IMG/VR virus record: IMGVR_UViG_3300031088_000793
Direction: 5' to 3' (one strand)
Length of the DNA: 64,000 bases
Origin: a virus
Taxonomy: Duplodnaviria; Heunggongvirae; Uroviricota; Caudoviricetes
Below are positions 19,230-48,993 of this stretch, piece after piece; within the stretch, counting starts at the first letter, position 1, and each line of letters opens with the position of its first letter. The position numbers and the translations under genes are program-made. A model generated the notes under the pieces. That model did no database searches and was not told the origin of the DNA. It saw nothing but the letters and a program-made list of their open reading frames with translations.

Positions 19230-20060
19230 CTACACACCGGTGAGTCCGTCGATGGTCTGCTGGAGCCGAGGGAGCGCTACGCCCGTGCCGTAGATCCAGG
19301 AGTGGCCGGGGATCCTGCGAACTCCATAGGATCCGAGCTCCACTCCAGTCTCAGCGTCCACGATGTCCCAGGACAGCTCTCCCTGCTGCTCGATCCGGAC
19401 TTCCCGGTAGCGAGAGAGGAAGAGGAAGGCATCCTCGAGCACCGAGAGCACTCCCTCCACAGTTGGAGGCAGGATGCTGTCGAAGAGCTCAGTCTTTAGG
19501 AAGTAGGGGCTGTGGAGCTCATCGTGGGCCTCGTCCCGGAAGCAGGGCGTCGTGGCCTGAACCCGGCCCAGCTCGTCACCCGAGAGGAGCATGTCGATGA
19601 AGGACTGCTCAGCGCTTCCTACGAGGTAGCCTCCGAAGGTGGCGTAGGGATCCTTGCCCGCTGGGAGCGTCGAATCCATAGCCTCCCGGGAGATCACCCA
19701 GGGCACCGCGATGTCCTCGTAGCCGAGCTCTTCGTAGTGATCCTGAGCGTCCGCGATGATCCTGAAGTTGAAGCGAAGCCGGCGCCTGTAGTCCCTGGTG
19801 CCCACCACCTCTGGGGAGACAGTGGGTACCACCGAGGGCTCTGGGATCTGCTCCGAAGCCCCTCCTGAGACTGAAGGCGGTGAGATCGTGCTTCCAGCCG
19901 GCCGAGCGATGGGGTGGAAGTGGAGCTGAGCATAGACGATGCCGTGCTCCAGCCCGTGATTGTCGGAGCACCAGCGGCCTGCCTGGGGATCATCGGAAGC
20001 TGCTAGCCGAGCCCGGCTCTGGGCTTCGGATTCCGGTTCGAGTACTCCTCCGGGGGCCAT
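19230..20060 (-). CDS. class II aminoacyl-tRNA synthetase-like catalytic core (Ser/Pro/Thr-type, no tRNA-binding domain)
   Basis: LVGSAEQ, motif 2 TTPCFRDE...FLKTEL, ELGSYG, motif 3 GTGVALPRL. Confidence 0.75.
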   Translation of the reverse strand: MAPGGVLEPESEAQSRARLAASDDPQAGRWCSDNHGLEHGIVYAQLHFHPIARPAGSTISPPSVSGGASEQIPEPSVVPTVSPEVVGTRDYRRRLRFNFRIIADAQDHYEELGYEDIAVPWVISREAMDSTLPAGKDPYATFGGYLVGSAEQSFIDMLLSGDELGRVQATTPCFRDEAHDELHSPYFLKTELFDSILPPTVEGVLSVLEDAFLFLSRYREVRIEQQGELSWDIVDAETGVELGSYGVRRIPGHSWIYGTGVALPRLQQTIDGLTGV

Positions 20061-20347
20061 CAGCTCCTCCGTCCTGAGACGAAGGCCCGGGCAGTGATCG
20101 AGGAGAAGGTCTCCAGCTCATCGATGCCGATGGTGGGATGATGCTTCGCCAGGTAGGCCTTCAGGGCGCCGAAGAGGTCAGCGAGCTCTACGAGGGCCAT
20201 GAGCGACGAGCCCTGAGCCTCCGCATCCAGAGCCTCGAGCACTTCTTCGTAGATCTTGGAGAGCTCACCCAGCTCTCCCTTGGGGATGTGCCGGAGGTGG
20301 TATCCGGGATTCTCAACTACGGACAGGTGGGCAAGCGTTTCAGCCAT
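20060..20347 (-). CDS. MazG-like all-alpha NTP pyrophosphohydrolase-family protein
   Basis: KIYEEVLE...ELADL acidic motif; TGATG coupling to the aaRS-like gene. Confidence 0.6.
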   Translation of the reverse strand: MAETLAHLSVVENPGYHLRHIPKGELGELSKIYEEVLEALDAEAQGSSLMALVELADLFGALKAYLAKHHPTIGIDELETFSSITARAFVSGRRS

Positions 20348-20517
20348 GCTCTTTTCCTTTTCGTTGGGACACTATTCTATCGCAGCGCCGGGAAGCATGC
20401 TCTCAGCCTGGGGTCAGATTCCTGCCTCTGAGCCCAGAATTCCCCGGCGCGGTGTCGTTGCTGCGCCTCTGTCGCCGGGGCGCTCAGCGGGGCTCCTAGG
20501 GCCTTCTAGTGCGCCTT

Positions 20518-21597
20518 CTACGCCGACTGACGGAAGTCCAGGGAGTAGCCCGTGCTCACAGTGCGCTCGCCTCGACCCTGGTAGACACTGTTGCTGACCT
20601 TGACGGGGAAGCGCAAGTCAGCAGCCATCCGCTTCCAGCTCTTCTTAGCCTCGGGAGTCTGCAGCCCAGAGGCTCGGAGCGAAAGGCCCTGCTCAGCTTG
20701 CTTTCGAGCCATGAAGACATAGAGGGACGCTCCGAGCCCCTGCCCGCGGAGCTCATCCCGGTCGAGATTGATGTAGTCGATGAAGGGCTCAGCGAAGCCC
20801 GCTCCGTGGGCGTCGAGCCTGTCGGAGGCTTCCTTCTGGAGCCGGGAGAGCTCAGTGCGGAGCTCAGCCTCATCCATCGACATCGGCAGCCTGTCTGTGT
20901 AGGACCGGAGGTGGCTTTGGGCCTTACCCACGAACTCGACGAGCTTCTCCTTCGTGTCGAGCTCAGGGATGTCCACCCTAGCCCTGTCGAGCCCCACTGC
21001 GCTCTGCTCGGGGCTGTAGTTACCCTCAGGGTAGTGCAGATCCATGGCGTAGAAGGAATCCCGGTGGCGAGAGTAGCGGAGGCCTCTCCACTCGTCGGAG
21101 CCGTAGCTATCATTGAGCGCAGCTGGGCTGATGTGGGCAGCCTTCGCATAGGCTACGATCTCGCCTTTCCTCAGAGTACGGTAGGTGATCCGAGCTATCC
21201 GGTAGCCCTGCTCGATCTCTGAGGAGATGTCGTTAGCCTCCACAGAAGCCGCCTCCCAGACCACAGCGAGGGGTCCCAGGGGACTGTCTATGACGGCGAT
21301 GGCCTGGGGAGTGACTCCGAAGAACTCCTGCTGAAGCCGGGAGCTGATCTTCTTGATCCAGCGGGGCTGCTTGGAAAGGGGCTCCAGGGAGGCAGTGAGA
21401 GCGAGCTCTGTGGCTGGGCTCAGAGCAGGACCGTCTCCTACTCCGATGTCGGCGAGGAGCTCCTGCTGCCGCTCGTAGATCTTGCGAGCTTCCATGGGGT
21501 CAGCGTAGTGGTCACTCTCGCCGCCGAAGGGACAGGGCTTAGTCCGAGCCTTGCAGACTCCGGGATTGCCCGCCTCATTGATGTGGTACTTCGCCAT
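20518..21597 (-). CDS. N-terminal Cys/His module plus C-terminal GNAT-like domain
   Basis: KYHIN..GNPG.C...CPFGG..DHY; acetyl-CoA motif LRGQGLGASLY. Confidence 0.65.
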   Translation of the reverse strand: MAKYHINEAGNPGVCKARTKPCPFGGESDHYADPMEARKIYERQQELLADIGVGDGPALSPATELALTASLEPLSKQPRWIKKISSRLQQEFFGVTPQAIAVIDSPLGPLAVVWEAASVEANDISSEIEQGYRIARITYRTLRKGEIVAYAKAAHISPAALNDSYGSDEWRGLRYSRHRDSFYAMDLHYPEGNYSPEQSAVGLDRARVDIPELDTKEKLVEFVGKAQSHLRSYTDRLPMSMDEAELRTELSRLQKEASDRLDAHGAGFAEPFIDYINLDRDELRGQGLGASLYVFMARKQAEQGLSLRASGLQTPEAKKSWKRMAADLRFPVKVSNSVYQGRGERTVSTGYSLDFRQSA

Positions 21598-21630
21598 GGA
21601 CACCCCTTCTGGCAACTAGTAGAGCTGAAT

Positions 21631-22122
21631 TCAGCTGGCGTCGCGGAGAATGTCTCGGACTACGAAGTGGCTTAGGAGGAGCTTGTCCGTGGATGGCCTA
21701 TTGGGGGAGATCACTTCCTTGAGCTCATCCTTGGCTCCCTGGAAGGCGTCGAGGAGCTTCGGGTCCTGAGTGCTCTCCAGGAGAGCGCCGAAAGTATCGT
21801 TGAGGGCCTCGGCGTAGTTGGCGAGCTGGTAGCCGGTGAAGTCATCCGGGCGGCGCTTGATCTCCTCAAGCCTGTCGGCCATAGAGTTGAGGAAGTAATC
21901 TACACTAGACTGGGGAAGCTTAGGGCTCCAGGCAGGGGTTGCAGCTGCGGCTGTAGCCCCATCAGCAAATGTCTCCATCTGCCTCTCGTAGGCCTCCCGG
22001 GCTTCGGGCACGCTGGCATAGTGGTCGCTCTCGCCGCCGAAGGGGCAGGGCCTGCCGTTTACGGAACGGCCTGCGGAACAGACTCCGGGATTGCCTTCGC
22101 CGTTGATGTGGTACTTCTGCAT
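21631..22122 (-). CDS. protein with N-terminal Cys/His module
   Basis: Start refined to MQKYHIN (GAGGAG RBS). Confidence 0.75.
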   Translation of the reverse strand: MQKYHINGEGNPGVCSAGRSVNGRPCPFGGESDHYASVPEAREAYERQMETFADGATAAAATPAWSPKLPQSSVDYFLNSMADRLEEIKRRPDDFTGYQLANYAEALNDTFGALLESTQDPKLLDAFQGAKDELKEVISPNRPSTDKLLLSHFVVRDILRDAS

Positions 22123-22196
22123 GGTGTGCTCCTCTTCCTGCAGTTTTCTAACAAAGTAGGCAGCTGCAGGACCCAGGAGCGATTCTGCGCTAGACT

Positions 22197-22260
22197 GCGA
22201 TCTAAGCCCTGAGAGCCCCGGCACCGTGTCATCGTCGGACGACAGGCGCCGGGGCGCTCA
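22197..22260. repeat. dispersed intergenic hairpin element, copy 1
   Basis: Near-identical to 29360-29423. Confidence 0.7.
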
Positions 22261-22366: not shown

Positions 22367-22840
22367 ATGCCTAAGTTCCACATCACCGACGGCGGCGACC
22401 CCGCTATCTGCGAAGCCAAGCCCGGAAACTGCCCCAAGGGCGAAGACGCTCCCCACGGAGAGTTCGAGTCCCAGGAGGCAGCTCGCTCCTGGGCTGAGGA
22501 ATCCAACGCGAAGAAGTACGCTACCGTGCCCGAAGTTGAGAAGCCCAAGAGGACCAAGAAGAACAGGTTCGTCGAGAAGCTCAGCCCAGAGCAGGTCAAG
22601 GGCCTCGCCAAGGGCTTCGAGGAGCTCTACGAGAACTCGAAGTATGACGACATCAGCCCCGCTCGACTCGATAGGCTCTGGGAGGCCTCCGAGGACGCCA
22701 AGCTGTTCGACAAGATGGACGCTGAGGATAGGCTCAACTGGGCTCATAGGGCGGCGAATCTAACTGAAACGGTGTCCAATCACCACGACTCAATCGCCGT
22801 TGCGAAGATCTACGATGAGCTAGTCGACATGGGGAGCTAG
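22367..22840 (+). CDS. protein with N-terminal Cys/His module
   Basis: MPKFHITDGGDPAICEAKPGNCPKG...H. Confidence 0.75.
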   Translation: MPKFHITDGGDPAICEAKPGNCPKGEDAPHGEFESQEAARSWAEESNAKKYATVPEVEKPKRTKKNRFVEKLSPEQVKGLAKGFEELYENSKYDDISPARLDRLWEASEDAKLFDKMDAEDRLNWAHRAANLTETVSNHHDSIAVAKIYDELVDMGS

Positions 22841-23304: not shown

Positions 23305-24144
23305 TCAGACCTTCCACCAGCTGTCGGTGGGTGCAACGGGAGGCTGACGCTTGTGCTCAGTGGCTGCGTAGCGGCGCTCCAGGATCTCGGTCGAGTAGGG
23401 ATCGATCTCCTCGCCGCGGAGGAAGCCGTCGATCTGTGCGTAGCTCACGCCGAGGCTGTCCTCGTCGGGCTGGGCGGGGATGCCGTCGAGGAGGTCAGCA
23501 GTGGGAGCCTTCTCGTAGAGCCGAGCGGGAGCGTCGAGCTCCTTCAGCATGGCGGCACCCTGGGACTTCGTGAGACCCGAGAGGGGGAGCACATCGGCAG
23601 CGCCGTCGCCGAACTTGGTGAAGAAGCCAGTCACGGCCTCCGCAGCGTGGTCCGTGCCGATGACCAGGAGCTTGAGCTCTCCGGCGATGGCATACTGAGC
23701 CACCATCCGCATCCGGGCCTTGATGTTGCCCCGATGGAAGTCGGCCACATCGAAGCCCAGACCCTCGCTCACCGAGCTGGCGATGGCATCGACTCCGGGT
23801 GCCACATCGACCACGACGGTCGAGACGGGCTGGATGAAGGAGAGCGCGAGCTGAGCGTCCTCCTCATCCTTCTGCACACCGTAGGGGAGCCGAACGGCCA
23901 CGAAGTCGTAGGACTTGCTCTTGTCGCTCTCGTCGGCCTGGAGCCGCTCCACGGCGAGCTGTGCGAGCCTGCCAGCGAGGCTGGAGTCCTGGCCGCCGGA
24001 GATGCCGAGGACGAAGCCTCGAACTCCAGGGACCGAGCGAGCGTAGTCCACGAGGAAGGAGACCCGGCGCTCGATCTCCTCTCGGGGATCGATCTCGGGC
24101 TTCGAGCCCAGGGCTTCGATGATCTGATGCTGCAGTTCGCTCAT
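23305..24144 (-). CDS. nadE: ammonia-dependent NAD+ synthetase
   Basis: LGISGGQDS, RLPYGVQ.DE, GNIKARMRM, GTDHAAE..TGFFTKFGDG, KAPTADL, TEHKR. Confidence 0.95.
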   Translation of the reverse strand: MSELQHQIIEALGSKPEIDPREEIERRVSFLVDYARSVPGVRGFVLGISGGQDSSLAGRLAQLAVERLQADESDKSKSYDFVAVRLPYGVQKDEEDAQLALSFIQPVSTVVVDVAPGVDAIASSVSEGLGFDVADFHRGNIKARMRMVAQYAIAGELKLLVIGTDHAAEAVTGFFTKFGDGAADVLPLSGLTKSQGAAMLKELDAPARLYEKAPTADLLDGIPAQPDEDSLGVSYAQIDGFLRGEEIDPYSTEILERRYAATEHKRQPPVAPTDSWWKV

Positions 24145-24493: not shown

Positions 24494-25429
24494 CTAGAGC
24501 TCTAGGACTCCGTAGGAACTCCGAGAGTAGGGGTATCCAGGACGCCCCTCTTCCTCCAGGGTGATGATGTCCCCGTCGAGGGTGAAGGTGAAGACCACTC
24601 CAGTGACATCGCGGAGCACGAAGTCCTTGCTCCGGAGCCCGAGGCCGTCGAAGAATCCCTGCAGATCATCCGGATACTGGCTAAGGAAGATCCGAAGGCT
24701 ATTGAGCTGGGATCTATCTGTGGCCCTGCCGTAGAGCGGATCCACTGAGGTAGCCAGGAGGCTGTAGGAGCTAGACCACTTCTCGAAGAAGCTGCCGCCA
24801 TCGCCGTTGGTGTGGTAGCGAGGGAGATTGAGCTCTCCGGCAGGTCTGCCTTCGATGAGCGCAGAGAGCTGGTCTTCGGTGATGGGGAGCAGCGTGAAGC
24901 GGTCCTGGATGTCAGTGTGACGAGCTATGCTCACTCCGAAGATCCCCAGCCGATCACCCTCGAGGAAGATCGTGTCCATGCCGGCGCCGATCCGTGCCCC
25001 GTAGTGATGGAGGAAGGGCTCCAGAGCTGGAGCGTCAGCACCGAGCAGTCCCCCGCGCTGCAGCACTCGATACTCCCAGATGTTCTCAGCTCCGGCATCT
25101 TCGAGGAGCTGTAGCCGTCTCCCGATCTCTCTGAGGAGGTCCCGGGTTCCGTCGAAGTGAGAGAGCCCCGCGGCCTTGATGGTGCTGAGATAGGCAGGGT
25201 TGCCGAAGTCGTAGCTGAGCTCAGGGTAGGCTGAGGAGTAGATGCTCTCCTCACCGATGAGCCGAAAGTGAGGGTAGAGCGCGGTGTACCTCTGAGCTGG
25301 AAATGCTGAGAAGGTCCGGAGCTCGTGGAGTGGCTCATCGACGGCCTTGAGCGCTGAGAGGTAGGAGAGACCGTGGGTCTCTGCGAAGTCCTTGGCTCGC
25401 TTCTTCAGTGCCTTGTTCGCTGTTGCCAT
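24494..25429 (-). CDS. RNA-leader-associated paralog A (basic helical N-terminus plus degenerate FtsK-like core)
   Basis: LK.RA..F...H..SY..AL.AVDEPLHELR and EPF.HHY motifs shared by four genes. Confidence 0.85.
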   Translation of the reverse strand: MATANKALKKRAKDFAETHGLSYLSALKAVDEPLHELRTFSAFPAQRYTALYPHFRLIGEESIYSSAYPELSYDFGNPAYLSTIKAAGLSHFDGTRDLLREIGRRLQLLEDAGAENIWEYRVLQRGGLLGADAPALEPFLHHYGARIGAGMDTIFLEGDRLGIFGVSIARHTDIQDRFTLLPITEDQLSALIEGRPAGELNLPRYHTNGDGGSFFEKWSSSYSLLATSVDPLYGRATDRSQLNSLRIFLSQYPDDLQGFFDGLGLRSKDFVLRDVTGVVFTFTLDGDIITLEEEGRPGYPYSRSSYGVLEL

Positions 25430-25602
25430 GGGGTTAGCCGATTCCGTGGTTCACTACCCTGCGCCTACCGAACCACTGTCTGCTGAGCTTGGCGGCATCT
25501 GTCTGTTGAAGTGGAGCAAGAGCGGCCGCCATCGAATAGCTGTCTGGAATGTGATCGACCCGCGCAGGGAGTCGAAACCAGGAGCCCGATCCGCAGGGCT
25601 CA
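25430..25602 (-). ncRNA. conserved structured RNA leader, copy A
   Basis: P1 GAGCCC/GGGCUC, CCUGCGC-GCGCAGG kissing loops, covarying stems; promoter TTGGAG-17-TAGCGT at 25609-25637. Confidence 0.75.
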
Positions 25603-25661
25603 CTGGCTACGCTATCACACTTCCAGCAGAGCTCCAAACAGCTGACGGACGATCTGAGTGC

Positions 25662-26558
25662 TCAGTCCCAGAGGAACATGTGCTCAGTGCTGCCGAACTC
25701 AAAGAGAGACTCTTCGTCCAGCGTGGCCGTAATGTGACTGCTGAAGTGCCTGAACTCGATCGTTCCGTCCGACAGATCGCGGAAGGTGAAGCCGAAGGGG
25801 TCGAGCCCTCTGGCTCTCATTTCTCCGTGGAGCTCATCGAGGTCTCTCCTGAAGAGGATGGCCATCTGTGGGAGATCGAAGCGGTTGTTCTTAGCCTTTG
25901 AGATAGCGAGCACGCTATAGCGATCAGTCCAGCAGTCAGGGCTGCTAGGATCATCGCTCTCCGCGCGTCTAAACCCCTCGATGGGACCTACGGGGGTGCC
26001 AGAGCTCAGCGCCGTGAGCTGCTCAGGAGTGACGGGGATGAAGCTGTGGCTATCCTGAATCTCTAGGAATCCGGACAGGTTGACGGGAATGAGCCCCAAT
26101 CTGCGGCCCATGGCATACATGGGAGCATAGGGCGACCTTAGCTCTTCGAAGTAGTGATGGAAGAACGGCTCGAGCTCCGGCTCATCTGGGCCCAGGATGC
26201 CGGAGCGCTGCAGCTCTCGATACTCCCAGTATGTCTCCAGACCCCTGTCCTTGAGGATCTGGTGGCGTCTAGCTGACTCCCCGATGAACTCCCAGAGACC
26301 CTTGAACTGACTCAGCTCATCGCCAGCCATGTAGGGCATTTCTAGCCCTCGAGCGCTGTAGACTGAGCCATAGCTACCCTGTTTGTCCACGACGCGGAAC
26401 ATCGTAGCGAAGTTGAAGTCCTGAGTCTGGGGAAGCTCCATGAGGTCGCGGAGCTCGTGGAGTGGCTCATCCACTGCCTTCAGCGCGACGGTGTAGGAGA
26501 CATCGTGCTTCGCTGCGAAGGCCTGTGCTCGACGCTTGAGCTTGTTGTTCTGTGCCAT
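25662..26558 (-). CDS. RNA-leader-associated paralog B
   Basis: Same motifs. Confidence 0.85.
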   Translation of the reverse strand: MAQNNKLKRRAQAFAAKHDVSYTVALKAVDEPLHELRDLMELPQTQDFNFATMFRVVDKQGSYGSVYSARGLEMPYMAGDELSQFKGLWEFIGESARRHQILKDRGLETYWEYRELQRSGILGPDEPELEPFFHHYFEELRSPYAPMYAMGRRLGLIPVNLSGFLEIQDSHSFIPVTPEQLTALSSGTPVGPIEGFRRAESDDPSSPDCWTDRYSVLAISKAKNNRFDLPQMAILFRRDLDELHGEMRARGLDPFGFTFRDLSDGTIEFRHFSSHITATLDEESLFEFGSTEHMFLWD

Positions 26559-26728
26559 GGGCTATGCCGTTCCATGGATCTCACCCTGCGCCTGCTGATC
26601 CACTTGACTGCTTGCCGGTAGGGCTACTGAACAATGGAGGTGGAGAGCGGCCGTCTACCGGGTAGCTGTCTGGATTGCTCCGAGCCCGCGCAGGGGGATC
26701 GAAACCAGGAGCCCGGACCGCGGACTCA
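26559..26728 (-). ncRNA. conserved structured RNA leader, copy B
   Basis: Same fold; -10 TAGCAT at 26734-26739. Confidence 0.75.
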
Positions 26729-26781
26729 CTCCCATGCTAACACACTGGAGTCAGTTCCGCGATCCGGGCTAGCTAGGTCGA

Positions 26782-27981
26782 TCAGCGACCGGCCTCGCTG
26801 GCTGCCGAGGGCCTAGTAGGCCTTTCGTCCCAGATATGAGGATTGTCCCACTCAAGCTGCAACCTCTCGGGTCCACCGTTGCGGCCACAGCCGTAGCAGG
26901 AGAAAAAGCCGCGAGGCTCACGCTCCGGGTAGATGACGAATCTGTCCCCGTTCTCCTCATGGAAGGGGCAGGCAGTAGAGATCTTGTTCTCATCATCCCT
27001 AGTAAGCGTGCCGTCGGACTCTCGCTCAAACTTCGCTCCGATGCTCTCGGCCACCTCCAGGATGGTGGGCCTCACGGGGAGCTCCTTTCCCCAGATGAGC
27101 ACACGCATGAGGCTATTGCTCAGAGAAGCGTCCAATTCGACCTCACGGCCTCTATGCTTGACTCGGAGGTGTGACTCTATGGCGCGAAGCTCCAGCTCTA
27201 GCTCAGAGATGTTCCTGAAATCAAAGTCGAGCGGATCAAGATCCCTGCTGCGAAGCTCTTCCTGGAGCGATGGTAGATCACCCTTAAAGAGCACAGAGAG
27301 CAATGACTGATGGCCATAAATGTCCTTGGCCCTGGAGGTAGCGAGTATGCTGAACCTATCCTCCCAATCAGCCCAGCCCTCGAGCTCAGCACCTACGATC
27401 TGAGTGAAGCGCTCGATGGCTCCCACGGGTTCGCCGTTACCGAGCGCCTGGAGCTGATCCTGGGTCACAGGTATGAACTTCTCACTCTCATCCCGGATAC
27501 CCATGAACTCTGTAGTGTTGACGGGATAGATCCCTGAGATACTCCCAAGGATGTGCTGTAGCGATCTGTAGGGACCATTGAGCCCCTCATCGTAGTGATG
27601 GAAGAAGGGCTCTAGAGCCTCAGCGTCGGCGTCTAGTAGTCCAGCTCTCCAAAGTTCCCTGTAGGCCCAGATGTTCTCTGTACCTGAGGCTTCGAGGAGG
27701 CCTTCCCTCCGTACGATCTCTTTGAGACACGCGATGGGGTTCTCAAAGGACGAAAGCCCTAGGTTCTTAGTTAGATCGTAGGAATCTACTCCAGGAAAAC
27801 CAGAGCCGTAGCTCCCTTGCCGGGGGACGATTCGAAAGCTGTGCGCTCCGTAGTAGCTGCGGCCGATGTCCCGGAGCTCGTGGAGGGGCTCATCCACCGC
27901 GCGGAGGGCCGTGCTGTAGCCCACAGCGTGCTTCTCCATGAAGGATCGAGCGGCTCGCTTGAGATTGGCGTTGTTGGTCAT
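26782..27981 (-). CDS. RNA-leader-associated paralog C with C-terminal CHC2-type zinc finger
   Basis: Family motifs plus CPFHEE...F.CYGCGRNG. Confidence 0.85.
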   Translation of the reverse strand: MTNNANLKRAARSFMEKHAVGYSTALRAVDEPLHELRDIGRSYYGAHSFRIVPRQGSYGSGFPGVDSYDLTKNLGLSSFENPIACLKEIVRREGLLEASGTENIWAYRELWRAGLLDADAEALEPFFHHYDEGLNGPYRSLQHILGSISGIYPVNTTEFMGIRDESEKFIPVTQDQLQALGNGEPVGAIERFTQIVGAELEGWADWEDRFSILATSRAKDIYGHQSLLSVLFKGDLPSLQEELRSRDLDPLDFDFRNISELELELRAIESHLRVKHRGREVELDASLSNSLMRVLIWGKELPVRPTILEVAESIGAKFERESDGTLTRDDENKISTACPFHEENGDRFVIYPEREPRGFFSCYGCGRNGGPERLQLEWDNPHIWDERPTRPSAASEAGR

Positions 27982-28153
27982 AGCTTAGCTCTTCCGTGGA
28001 TCCTCATCCTGCGCCTGCTGACCCACTCGTTGCTTAGCCTATGAGAAGGTGCCAAGGAACTGCTAGGGAAAGCGGTCGCCTATCCAATAGCTTCCCGGAC
28101 TCATCCGATCCCGCGCAGGGGGATCGAAAACCAGTAGCCCGACCGTGGGCTCA
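27982..28153 (-). ncRNA. conserved structured RNA leader, copy C
   Basis: Same fold; -10 TAGTGT at 28160-28165. Confidence 0.75.
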
Positions 28154-28220
28154 GAGTCCACACTATCATACTGGAGTCAATCTGCAAAGAGACCAGCGAC
28201 CGCTTTCCTCAGCTCAGCAC

Positions 28221-29120
28221 TCAATCCCAGAGGAGGATCTTGTCCGTACCGCCCCGGACGATCCTTTTGCTTCCCTGTCCTACCCTGAGAGAGGTGCCCC
28301 AGAGCTCGAAGTTGAGCTCGACCTCGACCCCATCATCGGCTAGATCCTCTACTGCACAGCGCCAGGAGGGAATGCCTCTACGCTCGAGATCGTCGATCAG
28401 CTCACCGGACGGCTTCTTAGAGAAAACAGTCACGCTGGGCCGATTGTGACTGTCCTTGCGCGTGGAGACCGCCATCGAGCGGTAGCTGTCTGTCCAGCGC
28501 TCAGCGTCATCCCTCTCTGCGAGGGAGTAGCGGAAGCCCTCGACGGGGCCTGCGGGACTACCTTCGGCCAGGGACTTGAGCTGCTGGTCAGTAACGGGGA
28601 TGAGTGGGAAATGCTCAGAGATGAAAGCAAACTGATCCATGTTCACTCCGAAGATTCCGAGCATTCCTCCGTGGACAGCGATGGGACTGAAGGATGATCC
28701 AAGCTCACCCATGTAGTGATGGAAGATCGGCTCGATTTCAGGGGAGTCGGGAGCAGTAAGTCCCGCCCGGCGAAGCTCTCTGTAGTACCAGATATCCAGC
28801 ACCTTGTGATCCCGGAGGAGCTGGTACCTTCGAACTGACTCCTCCATGTACTTCAGGCTATTCCTATAGCTGAAACGGTCGTCGTGTCCTGTGCCGCTAG
28901 GGCTGAGCAGATTCTTGCTGAAGTAGGGCTCGCCGTAGATGCTATCCTCAGTTACGAGCCTGAAGCCCTGTGCGAAGGAGAACTCTCTAGCACGGGGATT
29001 TCTAAGGAGTGATCTCAGCTCGTGGAGGGGCTCATCCACCGCGCGGAGGGCAGTAGAGTAGGAGACGCTGTGGCGCTCCATGAAGCTGCGAGCCTGCTGC
29101 TTGAGAGTGTTCTGGACCAT
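28221..29120 (-). CDS. RNA-leader-associated paralog D
   Basis: Same motifs. Confidence 0.85.
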   Translation of the reverse strand: MVQNTLKQQARSFMERHSVSYSTALRAVDEPLHELRSLLRNPRAREFSFAQGFRLVTEDSIYGEPYFSKNLLSPSGTGHDDRFSYRNSLKYMEESVRRYQLLRDHKVLDIWYYRELRRAGLTAPDSPEIEPIFHHYMGELGSSFSPIAVHGGMLGIFGVNMDQFAFISEHFPLIPVTDQQLKSLAEGSPAGPVEGFRYSLAERDDAERWTDSYRSMAVSTRKDSHNRPSVTVFSKKPSGELIDDLERRGIPSWRCAVEDLADDGVEVELNFELWGTSLRVGQGSKRIVRGGTDKILLWD

Positions 29121-29293
29121 GGGCTGAGCCGTTCCGTGGATCTGCTGAACCTGCGCTTGGCCGATCCACTGAGTGCTGAGCCTGGAAGGCAGAATGAGCA
29201 GTGCTAGTGGATGACGGCCGCCTACCTAGTAGGTCTCTGGATCGATCAGCCTCGCGCAGGGAGTCTGAACCAGGAGCCTAGACCGCAGGCTCA
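29121..29293 (-). ncRNA. conserved structured RNA leader, copy D
   Basis: Same fold; -10 TAGGAT at 29299-29304. Confidence 0.75.
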
Positions 29294-29359
29294 AGGTGAT
29301 CCTATCACAGATTCCCCGTGTTCGCACTGAGCGCAGCCCCAAGGCCATAGCGCTGAGCG

Positions 29360-29460: not shown

Positions 29461-30888
29461 CTACCTACCGTAGCTGAAGTGCCGAGCGATCTCCGTGGCC
29501 GAGAGCGCGGTGGGGTAGAGAGTGGTGTTGTCTAGGCTGCCAGCGAAGTAGTTCGAGGTCGGCGAGCCTGCCCAGCTGTTGCCGATGCTGTCGTAGCCCA
29601 CTCGCCAGTAGCCGTTGGAGGAGTTCTGCCCCGTGGTCATGGAGCCGTTGGCCGCCACAGCAACGCCGTCCACATAGAGCGTAGTGCCTCCCGTGGAGGA
29701 CATGGAGACCGTAGCGAGGTGCCACTGACCATCGTTGTAGCTCTGAGGGGAGCTCAGAGTCACGGGAGTGTTGAAGAGCCCTAGGAAGCCGGGCTGCATC
29801 AGTCCGAAGGTCAGGGTGCCAGCATCTGTCATGTAGAGATGGCGGTCGTAGGTCGTGGATGCTCCCGACTGCGAGTTGCCGTAGCCGATGAGCTTACCGC
29901 CTCGAGTGGTGGTGGTCTTGAACCAGGTCTCCACCGAGAAGGTGTTGGGAGCAGCACCCGAGAACCGGCCACCGGAGATCTGTCCTGAGCTTCCGTTGAG
30001 GGTCACGAAGGGATTGTCAGCCTCGGTGGAGCGAGTGACTCCCGAGCTCAGCGTGCCGTTCTGAGCGGTGCCCACATCGTCGAGCGCGAGGGTGCCGCTC
30101 TCCGAGTAGCCCCAGTGGAAGGTAGCGAAGTCCCAGGGCTTGGGGAAGCTCGTCGAAGCACCGAAGGCAGAGCTGCTAGCCGTGGTGCTTGAGAAAGCAG
30201 CACTTGCAGAGCCACCGATGAGGTAGACAGCTGTCACAGCTGTGATCAGCACTGCTGTGAGGGGCATGAGCGAGCCAGTGAGCTTAGGATTCCGCGCTCG
30301 GAAGTTCATGCCGTTGCTGTGGCGAGGGCCCCTAGCATCCCGATCCCTCCGCCTGAGGTCTCCATCGAGACCGGCGAGGTAGGAGGCGGCTGCGAGGGCT
30401 CCGAGGAAGATGCCCAGGGGAACCCAGTTGCCCCGGTGGAGCCAGTTGATGGGAACCCCCACGGAGGGCACCCGGACGAAGCCCACGCCCACCACAGCGC
30501 TGGGCTCTACGAGCATGGGGTCGGGCTCAGGGTTAGCATCGCCCTGGGTCTGAAGCCCATCCTCGCTCTGGTCGATGATCCGGTGGAGCTTCAGCCTGTC
30601 GGCCACAGCGGGGTCATCGAAGAGCACGACCTGCCCAGTCCTGAGCTCGCTCTCGGCCACGGGGAGGCTTGCCACCACATCGCCCGTGCGGATCCCCGGC
30701 TCCATGGAACCCGAAGCAACGGTGGTCACGGGGAGCCCGAAGAGTAGGGGTACCAGGGACCAGAGCACGAGGCTTCCAGTGGCGAAGAGCACGATCTTGC
30801 CGATGCTCGCCAGGACGAGCAACAGCCAGTCCCTTCGAGTGGAGGCATCCTGCTGGAGGGCCTGCGAGGACTTCGCGGTGGCTTCCAT
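29461..30888 (-). CDS. SipW-type (S26) signal peptidase fused to a LamG/ConA-like domain
   Basis: SGSMEP..GD, HRI, TQGDAN..D; internal ASAAFSST motif; FSVETWFKT, YNDGQWH, LYVDG. Confidence 0.85.
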   Translation of the reverse strand: MEATAKSSQALQQDASTRRDWLLLVLASIGKIVLFATGSLVLWSLVPLLFGLPVTTVASGSMEPGIRTGDVVASLPVAESELRTGQVVLFDDPAVADRLKLHRIIDQSEDGLQTQGDANPEPDPMLVEPSAVVGVGFVRVPSVGVPINWLHRGNWVPLGIFLGALAAASYLAGLDGDLRRRDRDARGPRHSNGMNFRARNPKLTGSLMPLTAVLITAVTAVYLIGGSASAAFSSTTASSSAFGASTSFPKPWDFATFHWGYSESGTLALDDVGTAQNGTLSSGVTRSTEADNPFVTLNGSSGQISGGRFSGAAPNTFSVETWFKTTTTRGGKLIGYGNSQSGASTTYDRHLYMTDAGTLTFGLMQPGFLGLFNTPVTLSSPQSYNDGQWHLATVSMSSTGGTTLYVDGVAVAANGSMTTGQNSSNGYWRVGYDSIGNSWAGSPTSNYFAGSLDNTTLYPTALSATEIARHFSYGR

Positions 30889-48291: not shown

Positions 48292-48993
48292 TCAGCTCCC
48301 TTCGGCTTCGGCTGAGCTGGAGCTTCGCCGGCTGTGGCTCCGCGGGTCCGGTCGGTTCTTCTCGAAGAGCTCCCGGATGTACTGTCCGTCGAGGTAGCGG
48401 CCGTAGGCCTGGACGGGGTGGGTGAACCTCAGGCTACCCGTGCGGTCGAAGAGCTGGATCTGCTGGATGGGCTTGGAGTAGCCCGTGACCTTCACCGTGA
48501 GAGGCCCCGCGGAGGTCATCACGACCTCCTCGTAGAAGTCGTTCGGTCGCTCCTCCTCGAACAGCCCTGACCCTCCAGGGAGCGCAGCCACCGTGGCCGG
48601 AGTCTTGACCTTGACGCTCCGGAGCTCATCGGCGAAGGCTCGAGCCTCAGCGACGCCGGGAGCGTCTCGAGTGAGGAAGCCGGAGTCCTTCTGAAGCCTC
48701 GCAGCGTGGGTCTCCAGGGCGATGGCGCCGATCTCTTCCCGGGTCTCGAAGGGCTTGTGGTCGTGGTTCTGAGTGGTGAAGTCTCGAGCCTCGAGGATCA
48801 GCAGCGCGGTCTGGAGCGCAGTGCGCTGAGTCTCGTTGCCGGGGTTGTAGCGGTAGAGGAGCGCGGTGAGCACCTCGGCGAGGTCGGAGGTCGAGAGCCC
48901 CGTGCGACCCGGAGAGTCCAGAGTGATGGACTCGACGGGCTTGGGCTCGCCGCCGGTCTGCTCGGGGGAAGCTGAAGTCAAATCTGCTGTCAT
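48292..48993 (-). CDS. hypothetical protein, leaderless
   Basis: TTGCGA-17-TAGGAT-6-ATG (49000-49028). Confidence 0.75.
   Translation of the reverse strand: MTADLTSASPEQTGGEPKPVESITLDSPGRTGLSTSDLAEVLTALLYRYNPGNETQRTALQTALLILEARDFTTQNHDHKPFETREEIGAIALETHAARLQKDSGFLTRDAPGVAEARAFADELRSVKVKTPATVAALPGGSGLFEEERPNDFYEEVVMTSAGPLTVKVTGYSKPIQQIQLFDRTGSLRFTHPVQAYGRYLDGQYIRELFEKNRPDPRSHSRRSSSSAEAEGS

Follow-up and report, generated by a model that had tools for sequence, protein, structure and literature searches.

A conserved, structured leader RNA precedes each gene of a tandem paralogous array in a 64-kb IMG/VR virus record

Our analysis of a 64,000-nucleotide stretch of DNA filed as a virus of the Caudoviricetes (IMG/VR record IMGVR_UViG_3300031088_000793; the whole stretch is called the window below) provides strong evidence for a structured leader RNA that stands directly in front of each of four paralogous genes. 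The four genes all lie on the minus strand and are co-directional, in the order D, C, B, A from high to low coordinates (Table 1), and their proteins share an N-terminal module. We are highly confident that the leader is functional and was previously undescribed. As to its role, we favor cis-acting control of translation at roughly even odds (about 0.5): judging from the sequences, a two-domain fold, locked by a loop-loop contact, would enclose the ribosome-binding region of the downstream gene.

A preliminary description of the locus had placed four leaders on the minus strand. All four were found where it put them, and the helices it listed (P1, a CUGG/CCRG stem, here P2, a hairpin P3 with the loop CCUGCGC, a small hairpin P4, and a 3' hairpin P5 with the loop GCGCAGG) are all present with the sequences it gave. 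In an alignment of the ~185 nt upstream of each start codon the four window leaders show 77% mean column identity, and they are far better conserved than the coding regions, given the 34-35% amino acid identity among the four proteins. The window contains four instances of the pattern CCCTGCGCG-N90-120-GCGCAGG, all on the minus strand and each at one of the leaders; shuffled sequences give 0.01. The first covariance model (R1), made from the four leaders of the window, found 24 more copies on contigs fetched via the proteins of the family, all on the gene strand and each ending at a start codon. The rebuilt model (R2) identified 49 full-length copies (47 distinct, 120-176 bits) in the window plus 19 fetched metagenome contig stretches. 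Every one of the 49 lies on the gene strand, ends at the ATG and is directly upstream of a gene for a protein of the same family. A scan of the window with R2, filters off, returned exactly the four copies.

Rfam 15 gave no match at gathering thresholds across the whole window. At E <= 10 between positions 24000 and 30000 it returned lncRNA, miRNA and snoRNA noise only, far below threshold and off the leaders. The earlier statement that the element is not a named Rfam family is thus upheld. A search of the published literature by source-sample identifiers and by keywords yielded nothing relevant.

The helices P1 to P5 and their strand specificity are established by comparison of the 47 distinct sequences, with controls in which 3' partners were slid by 1-3 columns and with 500 shuffles. 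Standard pairs are formed in 97.2% of 1903 pair cells, versus 33-44% with slid partners, and 11 pairs show compensatory changes on both sides. These are distributed over all five helices: five of the seven pairs of P3, two of the four of P4, two of the seven of P5 (where four more vary on one side only), one of the six of P1 (three more varying on one side only) and one of the four of P2. None of the 500 shuffles reaches the observed covariation score or the count of double-changed cells. About 9% of the paired cells are G-U in a tally of the per-pair table, and these become C-A mismatches on the opposite strand, so the fold exists on the sense strand only, which points to RNA. Both the covariation and the G-U argument for the strand, as put forward in the preliminary description, hold on the gene strand.

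The position of the leader in its transcript is suggested by a promoter element. Each of the 47 distinct copies is preceded by an extended -10 element, TGnTA(G/A/C)nnT, and in every case the last T of this element and P1 are exactly 7 nt apart. The -10 box that had been ascribed to each cassette is therefore confirmed and sharpened to an extended -10 (TGnTAnnnT) at a fixed 7-nt spacing. A simple sigma-70 scan found no -35/-10 pair at the leader promoters, which fits an extended -10 promoter. Three other window genes, at 48993 (minus strand), 54171 (plus) and 59233 (plus), carry a TAGGAT box 7 nt upstream of the ATG, with no Shine-Dalgarno sequence between the two. By their sequence these genes probably give leaderless mRNAs from the same -10 element that the leader cassettes use. 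Because apparently leaderless genes carry TAGGAT 7 nt upstream, we infer that TAGGAT serves as a -10 element in this genome and that the 5' end of the leader lies at P1. Each cassette would be a transcription unit of its own, in which the extended -10 starts the RNA about 1-2 nt before P1 and produces a 5' untranslated region (UTR) of about 170-175 nt.

This arrangement also bears on the idea that the leader is a self-cleaving ribozyme, or a 5' stabilizer or processing element, which would cut read-through transcripts of the array or protect 5' ends. The units are indeed tandem and co-directional, and a scan for terminator-like sites found none between the stop of one gene and the promoter of the next cassette. 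Small ribozymes typically have compact folds with a double pseudoknot, and the fold proposed for the leader would resemble them. However, every unit keeps its own strictly conserved promoter, no Rfam ribozyme model matches, and a length of ~170 nt is much larger than that of known small self-cleavers. We consider this explanation highly unlikely.

Translation signals point to the level at which the leader may act. In other genes a GGAGG-like site ends 5-9 nt ahead of the ATG; the leader genes carry nothing but a weak Shine-Dalgarno-like GGAA, which lies directly 3' of P5 and, in A, B and D, 11-12 nt from the ATG. The 3' strand of a moderately supported helix that flanks P5 (P6) falls between the GGAA and the AUG; pairing of the start codon itself is not significant. 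No stem followed by a U-tract was seen at the 3' ends of the four leaders, and the sole terminator-like site within a leader overlaps P1 of copy C. Since a 3' stem with U-tract is lacking and the weak GGAA abuts P5, control of translation appears likelier than attenuation. With the GGAA adjoining P5 on its 3' side and P6 contributing its 3' strand ahead of the AUG, the folded leader would enclose the ribosome-binding region.

In the proposed fold the 5' domain would consist of P1, then P2 enclosing the hairpin P3, then the small hairpin P4, with the loop of P1 pairing to a GGCCGC segment after P4 (pseudoknot PK2). A linker would separate it from the 3' domain, the hairpin P5 closed by the flanking helix P6, and the complementary loops of P3 and P5 probably hold the two domains together through a kissing interaction (pseudoknot PK1). 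The leader would act in this way on the translation of a multi-copy protein family with a two-helix N-terminal module, a body that weakly resembles FtsK/EccC but lacks a P-loop and, in some members, a CHC2 zinc ribbon. Both loops of PK1 are invariant and 7 of 7 positions pair in all 47 sequences; a 7-bp kissing contact is plausible on these sequences, and because neither loop varies it lies beyond the reach of covariation. In PK2, 89% of the cells are paired, with alternation among U-G, C-G and U-A. The linker is variable, C/U-rich and about 35-55 nt long, with a class-specific hairpin; it differs between classes yet is conserved among orthologs. P6 is a probable helix, recovered by constrained folds in most classes with strands that differ by class (AGC/GCU, ACCGAUC/GAUUGGU, AGCUA/UAGCU, GUAGGC/GCUUAC), and the own flanks of P5 give -7.4 kcal/mol versus -5.6 with foreign flanks. 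Two further pairings were considered and rejected. A loop-loop helix longer than 7 bp, seen in the minimum-energy fold of copy B, is not conserved, as the base after GCGCAGG varies. A switch in which the linker sequence UCCAC would be an alternative partner of the 5' arm of P5 has a median p of 0.54.

A number of observations weigh against this reading. Because the copies compared all belong to one unit, as its paralogs or orthologs, relatedness accounts for some of the shuffle signal. The folding energy of a single sequence is unremarkable (z -1.68 for the sense strand, -1.01 for the antisense strand), and support for the structure is accordingly comparative and not thermodynamic. The minimum-energy fold joins the two 7-mers in a nested long-range helix, and P2, P3 and P5, all of which covary, are broken by it. 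As for the two pseudoknots of the preliminary description, the complementarity stands (exact in every copy for the kissing loop, 89% of cells for the second), but compensatory changes are absent from both. The changes in PK2 are one-sided only, with zero double changes, and the invariance of PK1 is explained equally well by sequence-specific recognition of the two 7-mers. Support for P6 is moderate, with a median shuffle p of 0.14 and 7 of 23 classes at p <= 0.05. A pairing between start codon and linker ('P7'), attractive in constrained folds, had to be discarded: its median p is 0.22 versus shuffled linkers, foreign start regions pair at least as well as own ones, and it holds in two classes only. 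Finally, the N-terminal module has no significant similarity to any solved nucleic-acid-binding fold, RNA-binding folds included.

The invariant 7-mers could also be thought of as a DNA-level element, either inverted operator half-sites ~100 bp apart for DNA looping or a single-stranded DNA promoter or recombination site. CCTGCGC and GCGCAGG do form an inverted repeat in DNA, and they never vary though pure pairing would permit covariation. In contrast, each 7-mer falls exactly within the loop of a hairpin whose stem covaries, G-U pairs make the structure strand-specific, and the element is situated between promoter and ATG, reaching up to the latter. An explanation at the level of DNA is extremely unlikely.

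A riboswitch deserves more attention. Here the 5' domain (P1-P4 with PK2) would bind a small molecule or ion and thereby set the kissing of the P3 and P5 loops (L3 and L5), so that P5 and P6 are stabilized and the ribosome-binding region is masked. The complex pseudoknotted fold, its covarying stems and the invariant tertiary-contact nucleotides would suit such a function, as would several copies per genome and the placement of a conserved covarying fold in the 5' UTR, up to the ribosome-binding site. In cobalamin riboswitches a ligand-dependent kissing loop controls the expression platform. The leader is like this class in having two domains, a variable linker and a probable loop-loop contact with a hairpin beside the ribosome-binding site; it differs in that it has no Rfam match, stands before one family of unknown function and gives no indication of a ligand. 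All copies precede this one family and not metabolic or transport genes, most of the invariant nucleotides are in predicted pairings and not in unpaired junctions, and no Rfam aptamer was found. A riboswitch is an unlikely explanation.

Translational control by the folded leader has its closest parallel in autoregulated leaders such as those of S15, the S4/alpha operon and phage T4 gene 32, which are likewise pseudoknotted 5' UTRs ending at the ribosome-binding region. There the own gene product is the ligand, whereas for the new leader the own product is only suspected. The leader described here shows no sequence or model similarity to them. It exceeds them in size, with two candidate pseudoknots and five to six helices, and each locus has 4-6 copies, which stand before paralogs. 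As the factor that would stabilize or open the fold, the invariant N-terminal module of the family (ALxAVDEPLHxLR), feeding back on the leader, is a possible first candidate, which we propose tentatively on the strength of the sequences.

The association of leader and gene is strict. All 48 full N-terminal modules in the fetched loci are directly preceded by a leader, and 48 of the 49 leaders are followed by the module, the one exception being truncated by the end of its contig. The preliminary description had asked whether leader matches always precede the same N-terminal domain, and apart from this contig end they do. Its proposal that leader and gene were duplicated and diversified as a unit also agrees with our data, as the paralog classes of leader and N-terminus correspond across contigs. 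A reading in which the cognate protein carries different cargo is not supported, because every reachable leader-bearing gene belongs to one protein family. The 48 downstream genes form a single family without a Pfam domain except for the occasional zinc ribbon, and longer forms (467-474 aa with zinc ribbon; 675 aa) fall into the same family by profile comparison (E 5e-37 and 2e-45), so in the DNA reached the leader is the 5' UTR of one diversifying family and not a module that travels among unrelated cargo genes. The fetched contigs carry the same tandem arrays. Array content differs among close relatives of the window (L140 1678-5705, L134 and L149), which indicates gain and loss of paralogs between strains; the L140 array has D-like, B and A copies plus an extra fifth one, with no C between D and B.

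The shared N-terminal peptide of the preliminary description is real, with 16 invariant positions of 40. The accompanying view that the proteins diverge toward their C-termini needs refining: beyond the peptide a body of about 250 aa is conserved, and the differences are mainly in C-terminal extensions. Invariant residues of the N-terminal module use 2-5 codons each (six of eleven use 3-5), and identity at third codon positions (0.62) is below that at first (0.77) and second positions (0.81). Because codons vary and third positions are least conserved, the module is selected as protein, and conservation of this coding region at the RNA level was rejected. A profile of the module matched 73 proteins among 1.84 billion representatives. 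Of these, 37 reach E <= 1e-10 and align over almost all of the module, at the N-terminus or close to it; the weaker matches show just a two-helix N-terminus of a generic, actinobacterial-looking kind that lacks DEPLHELR. Judged by sequence, this generic N-terminus appears to extend beyond the leader system. One of these weaker matches, the MinD/DnaB-like P0075, was set aside, being encoded on an unrelated low-GC contig without leader. The public gene calls for the family members P0002, P0003 and P0016 (L001 8001, L008 5682, L007 8001) start 8-9 codons early (MVVHRLAYP...) and thus translate the 3' arm of P5 and the spacer; the real start is the conserved ATG. Compared with solved structures, the module gave chance myoglobin rows only (PDB sequence profile), and the isolated module gave E > 2 in Foldseek, with HU-like helices on top.

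Among proteins A-D, only that of gene C has a Pfam domain, PF01807 CHC2 (27.5 bits versus a cut-off of 24.9, residues 327-369); the relatives P0052 and P0053 match CHC2 at 28.2 and 54.4 bits. No RuvC, HNH, nuclease, FtsK_SpoIIIE or AAA domain was found in A-D with Pfam, NCBIfam added nothing, and PADLOC found no defence family in them apart from the zinc ribbon. An AF2 model of protein B (pLDDT 86.6, pTM 0.83) gave nothing at E <= 0.001 in Foldseek. With an exhaustive structure aligner (VIA) its top five rows are FtsK/EccC/TcpA ATPase domains at weak Z scores of 4.3-5.1, in alignments covering residues from about 1 or 30 to 180. In the ESM Atlas 3 of the 10 rows shown are FtsK families with TM scores by query of 0.35-0.41. 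The scores of both comparisons are too low for a reliable fold match. The likeness to FtsK/SpoIIIE-EccC-TcpA thus consists in residues ~30-180 of the model aligning best there, with weak scores. The difference is that no Walker A motif (GxxxxGK[ST]), which marks P-loop ATPases, was seen on reading the translations of A-D. A P-loop-less FtsK/EccC-like fold of the body is a weak lead from the model.

These proteins raise the question of whether the RNA could be a working partner of its protein, as a stable, 5'-UTR-derived ribonucleoprotein scaffold, RNA antitoxin or guide-like cofactor. Leader and N-terminal module are strictly one-to-one and co-diverge by class, the proteins carry nucleic-acid-related parts (the CHC2 zinc ribbon and the weak FtsK-like fold), and most protein-binding operators are smaller and simpler than the leader. 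Yet duplication of the whole gene unit yields one-to-one linkage anyway, and no variable guide-like segment stands out, the linker being conserved among orthologs. Apart from the zinc ribbon the proteins match no known toxin or defence family, no short RNA repeats were found, and HEARO and the other Rfam models are silent. Two known types of system share a structured, pseudoknotted RNA directly upstream of, and co-transcribed with, a protein gene. In comparison with IscB/IsrB and their omega RNA (HEARO), the leaders lack a HEARO match and the proteins lack RuvC and HNH domains by Pfam; in comparison with ToxI and type III toxin-antitoxin systems, the leaders lack tandem 36-nt repeats and the proteins match no ToxN-like family. 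A working partnership of this kind is doubtful, and the antitoxin, guide and ribozyme readings of the preliminary description received no positive support. We regard it as quite unlikely that the leader is the RNA half of a new RNA-protein machine acting on DNA in replication priming, partition or transfer. In such a machine the invariant N-terminal module would, while still nascent, seize its own mRNA at the 5' end; the P-loop-less FtsK-like body would form the protein component, joined in some paralogs by a zinc ribbon of the primase type, and the setting would be a very large, almost annotation-free, high-GC replicon.

The leader is confined to a rare, uncultivated, high-GC type of genome. 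The protein family comprises 31 clusters among 5.8 billion sequences, all metagenomic and often several per contig, and a protein-based scan of GTDB species genomes found no relative. A loose 23-base pattern gave at least 120 matches in GTDB species genomes, with many Streptomyces matches of one fixed length among those listed, and 3 in IMG/VR; the covariance model rejects every listed one. A stricter pattern, which keeps every copy in the fetched loci and drops all chance matches, was used for the metagenome scan and found 17 stretches from six JGI samples; in species genomes and IMG/VR it found no true leader copy. Comparison with phage and plasmid records by blastn and at the protein level gave no DNA or protein match to the leader or the family.

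The window has 58-64% G+C, its longest open reading frame (ORF) has 475 aa, and no tRNA or tmRNA was found in it. Nearly all tested window ORFs are without a match in Pfam and PHROG, and PHROGs gave nothing diagnostic of phage on the neighboring genes of related contigs. Family members occur on contigs of up to 673,773 and 697,753 bp. The replicon may belong to a huge phage, to some other extrachromosomal element or to a reduced actinobacterium.

Table 1. Coordinates of the four cassettes in the window, from high to low positions.
Feature	Position	Strand	Remarks
Extended -10 promoter, cassette D	29299..29307	-	TGATAGGAT; box 7 nt from P1, as in all copies
Leader RNA D	29121..29292	-	P1 to base before ATG; cmsearch R1 178.4, R2 153.4 bits
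L3, leader D	29254..29260	-	CCUGCGC
L5, leader D	29150..29156	-	GCGCAGG
PK2 3' strand, leader D	29214..29219	-	
Shine-Dalgarno-like site, leader D	29132..29135	-	GGAA
Gene D	28221..29120	-	299 aa; N-terminal module and conserved body
Extended -10 promoter, cassette C	28160..28168	-	TGATAGTGT
Leader RNA C	27982..28152	-	cmsearch R1 179.1, R2 161.3 bits
L3, leader C	28113..28119	-	
L5, leader C	28008..28014	-	
PK2 3' strand, leader C	28072..28077	-	GACCGC
GGAA, leader C	27992..27995	-	
Gene C	26782..27981	-	399 aa; N-terminal module, conserved body, C-terminal CHC2 (DnaG-type) zinc ribbon
Extended -10 promoter, cassette B	26734..26742	-	TGTTAGCAT
Leader RNA B	26559..26727	-	cmsearch R1 181.9, R2 165.5 bits
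L3, leader B	26688..26694	-	
L5, leader B	26585..26591	-	
PK2 3' strand, leader B	26647..26652	-	
GGAA, leader B	26570..26573	-	
Gene B	25662..26558	-	298 aa
Extended -10 promoter, cassette A	25609..25617	-	TGATAGCGT
Leader RNA A	25430..25601	-	cmsearch R1 171.5, R2 161.5 bits
L3, leader A	25562..25568	-	
L5, leader A	25458..25464	-	
PK2 3' strand, leader A	25522..25527	-	
GGAA, leader A	25442..25445	-	
Gene A	24494..25429	-	311 aa

The surroundings of the array are partly conserved. Genes for NAD synthase and a Laminin_G_3 protein flank the array of the window and are often near arrays in the fetched contigs. Two syntenic companions of the array recur in several contigs, both without a leader (window 19230-21615 on the minus strand; L001 12628-16597; L002 12007-16013; L007 10958-14959). 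One is 361-365 aa long and of unknown family; the other is short (245-276 aa) and resembles class II aminoacyl-tRNA synthetases, with a weak PF00152 match and phrog_4806 at E 1.7e-31. Two divergent neighbors, at 21631-22224 (minus) and 22367-22840 (plus), share a His/Cys-rich N-terminus, M.K[YF]HI..G.P..C...., apparently a second shared N-terminal module in this genome. Adjoining the array at 29461-30888 (minus) is a gene for a signal-peptidase/LamG fusion protein, whose best match in an annotated record (46.6% identity over the C-terminal third) is on an unannotated human-gut phage contig, with weak matches in archaeal lipothrixviruses. Just downstream of one array, at L003 10112-11319, an IS605 OrfB/TnpB-like gene (Cas12f1-like_TNB) was found.

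Few complex bacterial RNAs have two long-range tertiary pairings, and the majority of these have opened up new biochemistry, such as riboswitches, ribozymes and ribonucleoprotein cofactors. The leader RNA described here is well defined, with 47 distinct sequences, a clear promoter and a clear 3' end at the ATG, and it is small enough for direct structural and biochemical work. The gene family linked to it offers an entry into genomic dark matter, on contigs of up to ~0.7 Mb with almost no Pfam or PHROGs matches. If the family's own N-terminal peptide were the effector, leader and peptide would constitute a compact new RNA-peptide recognition pair that is reused across paralogs.

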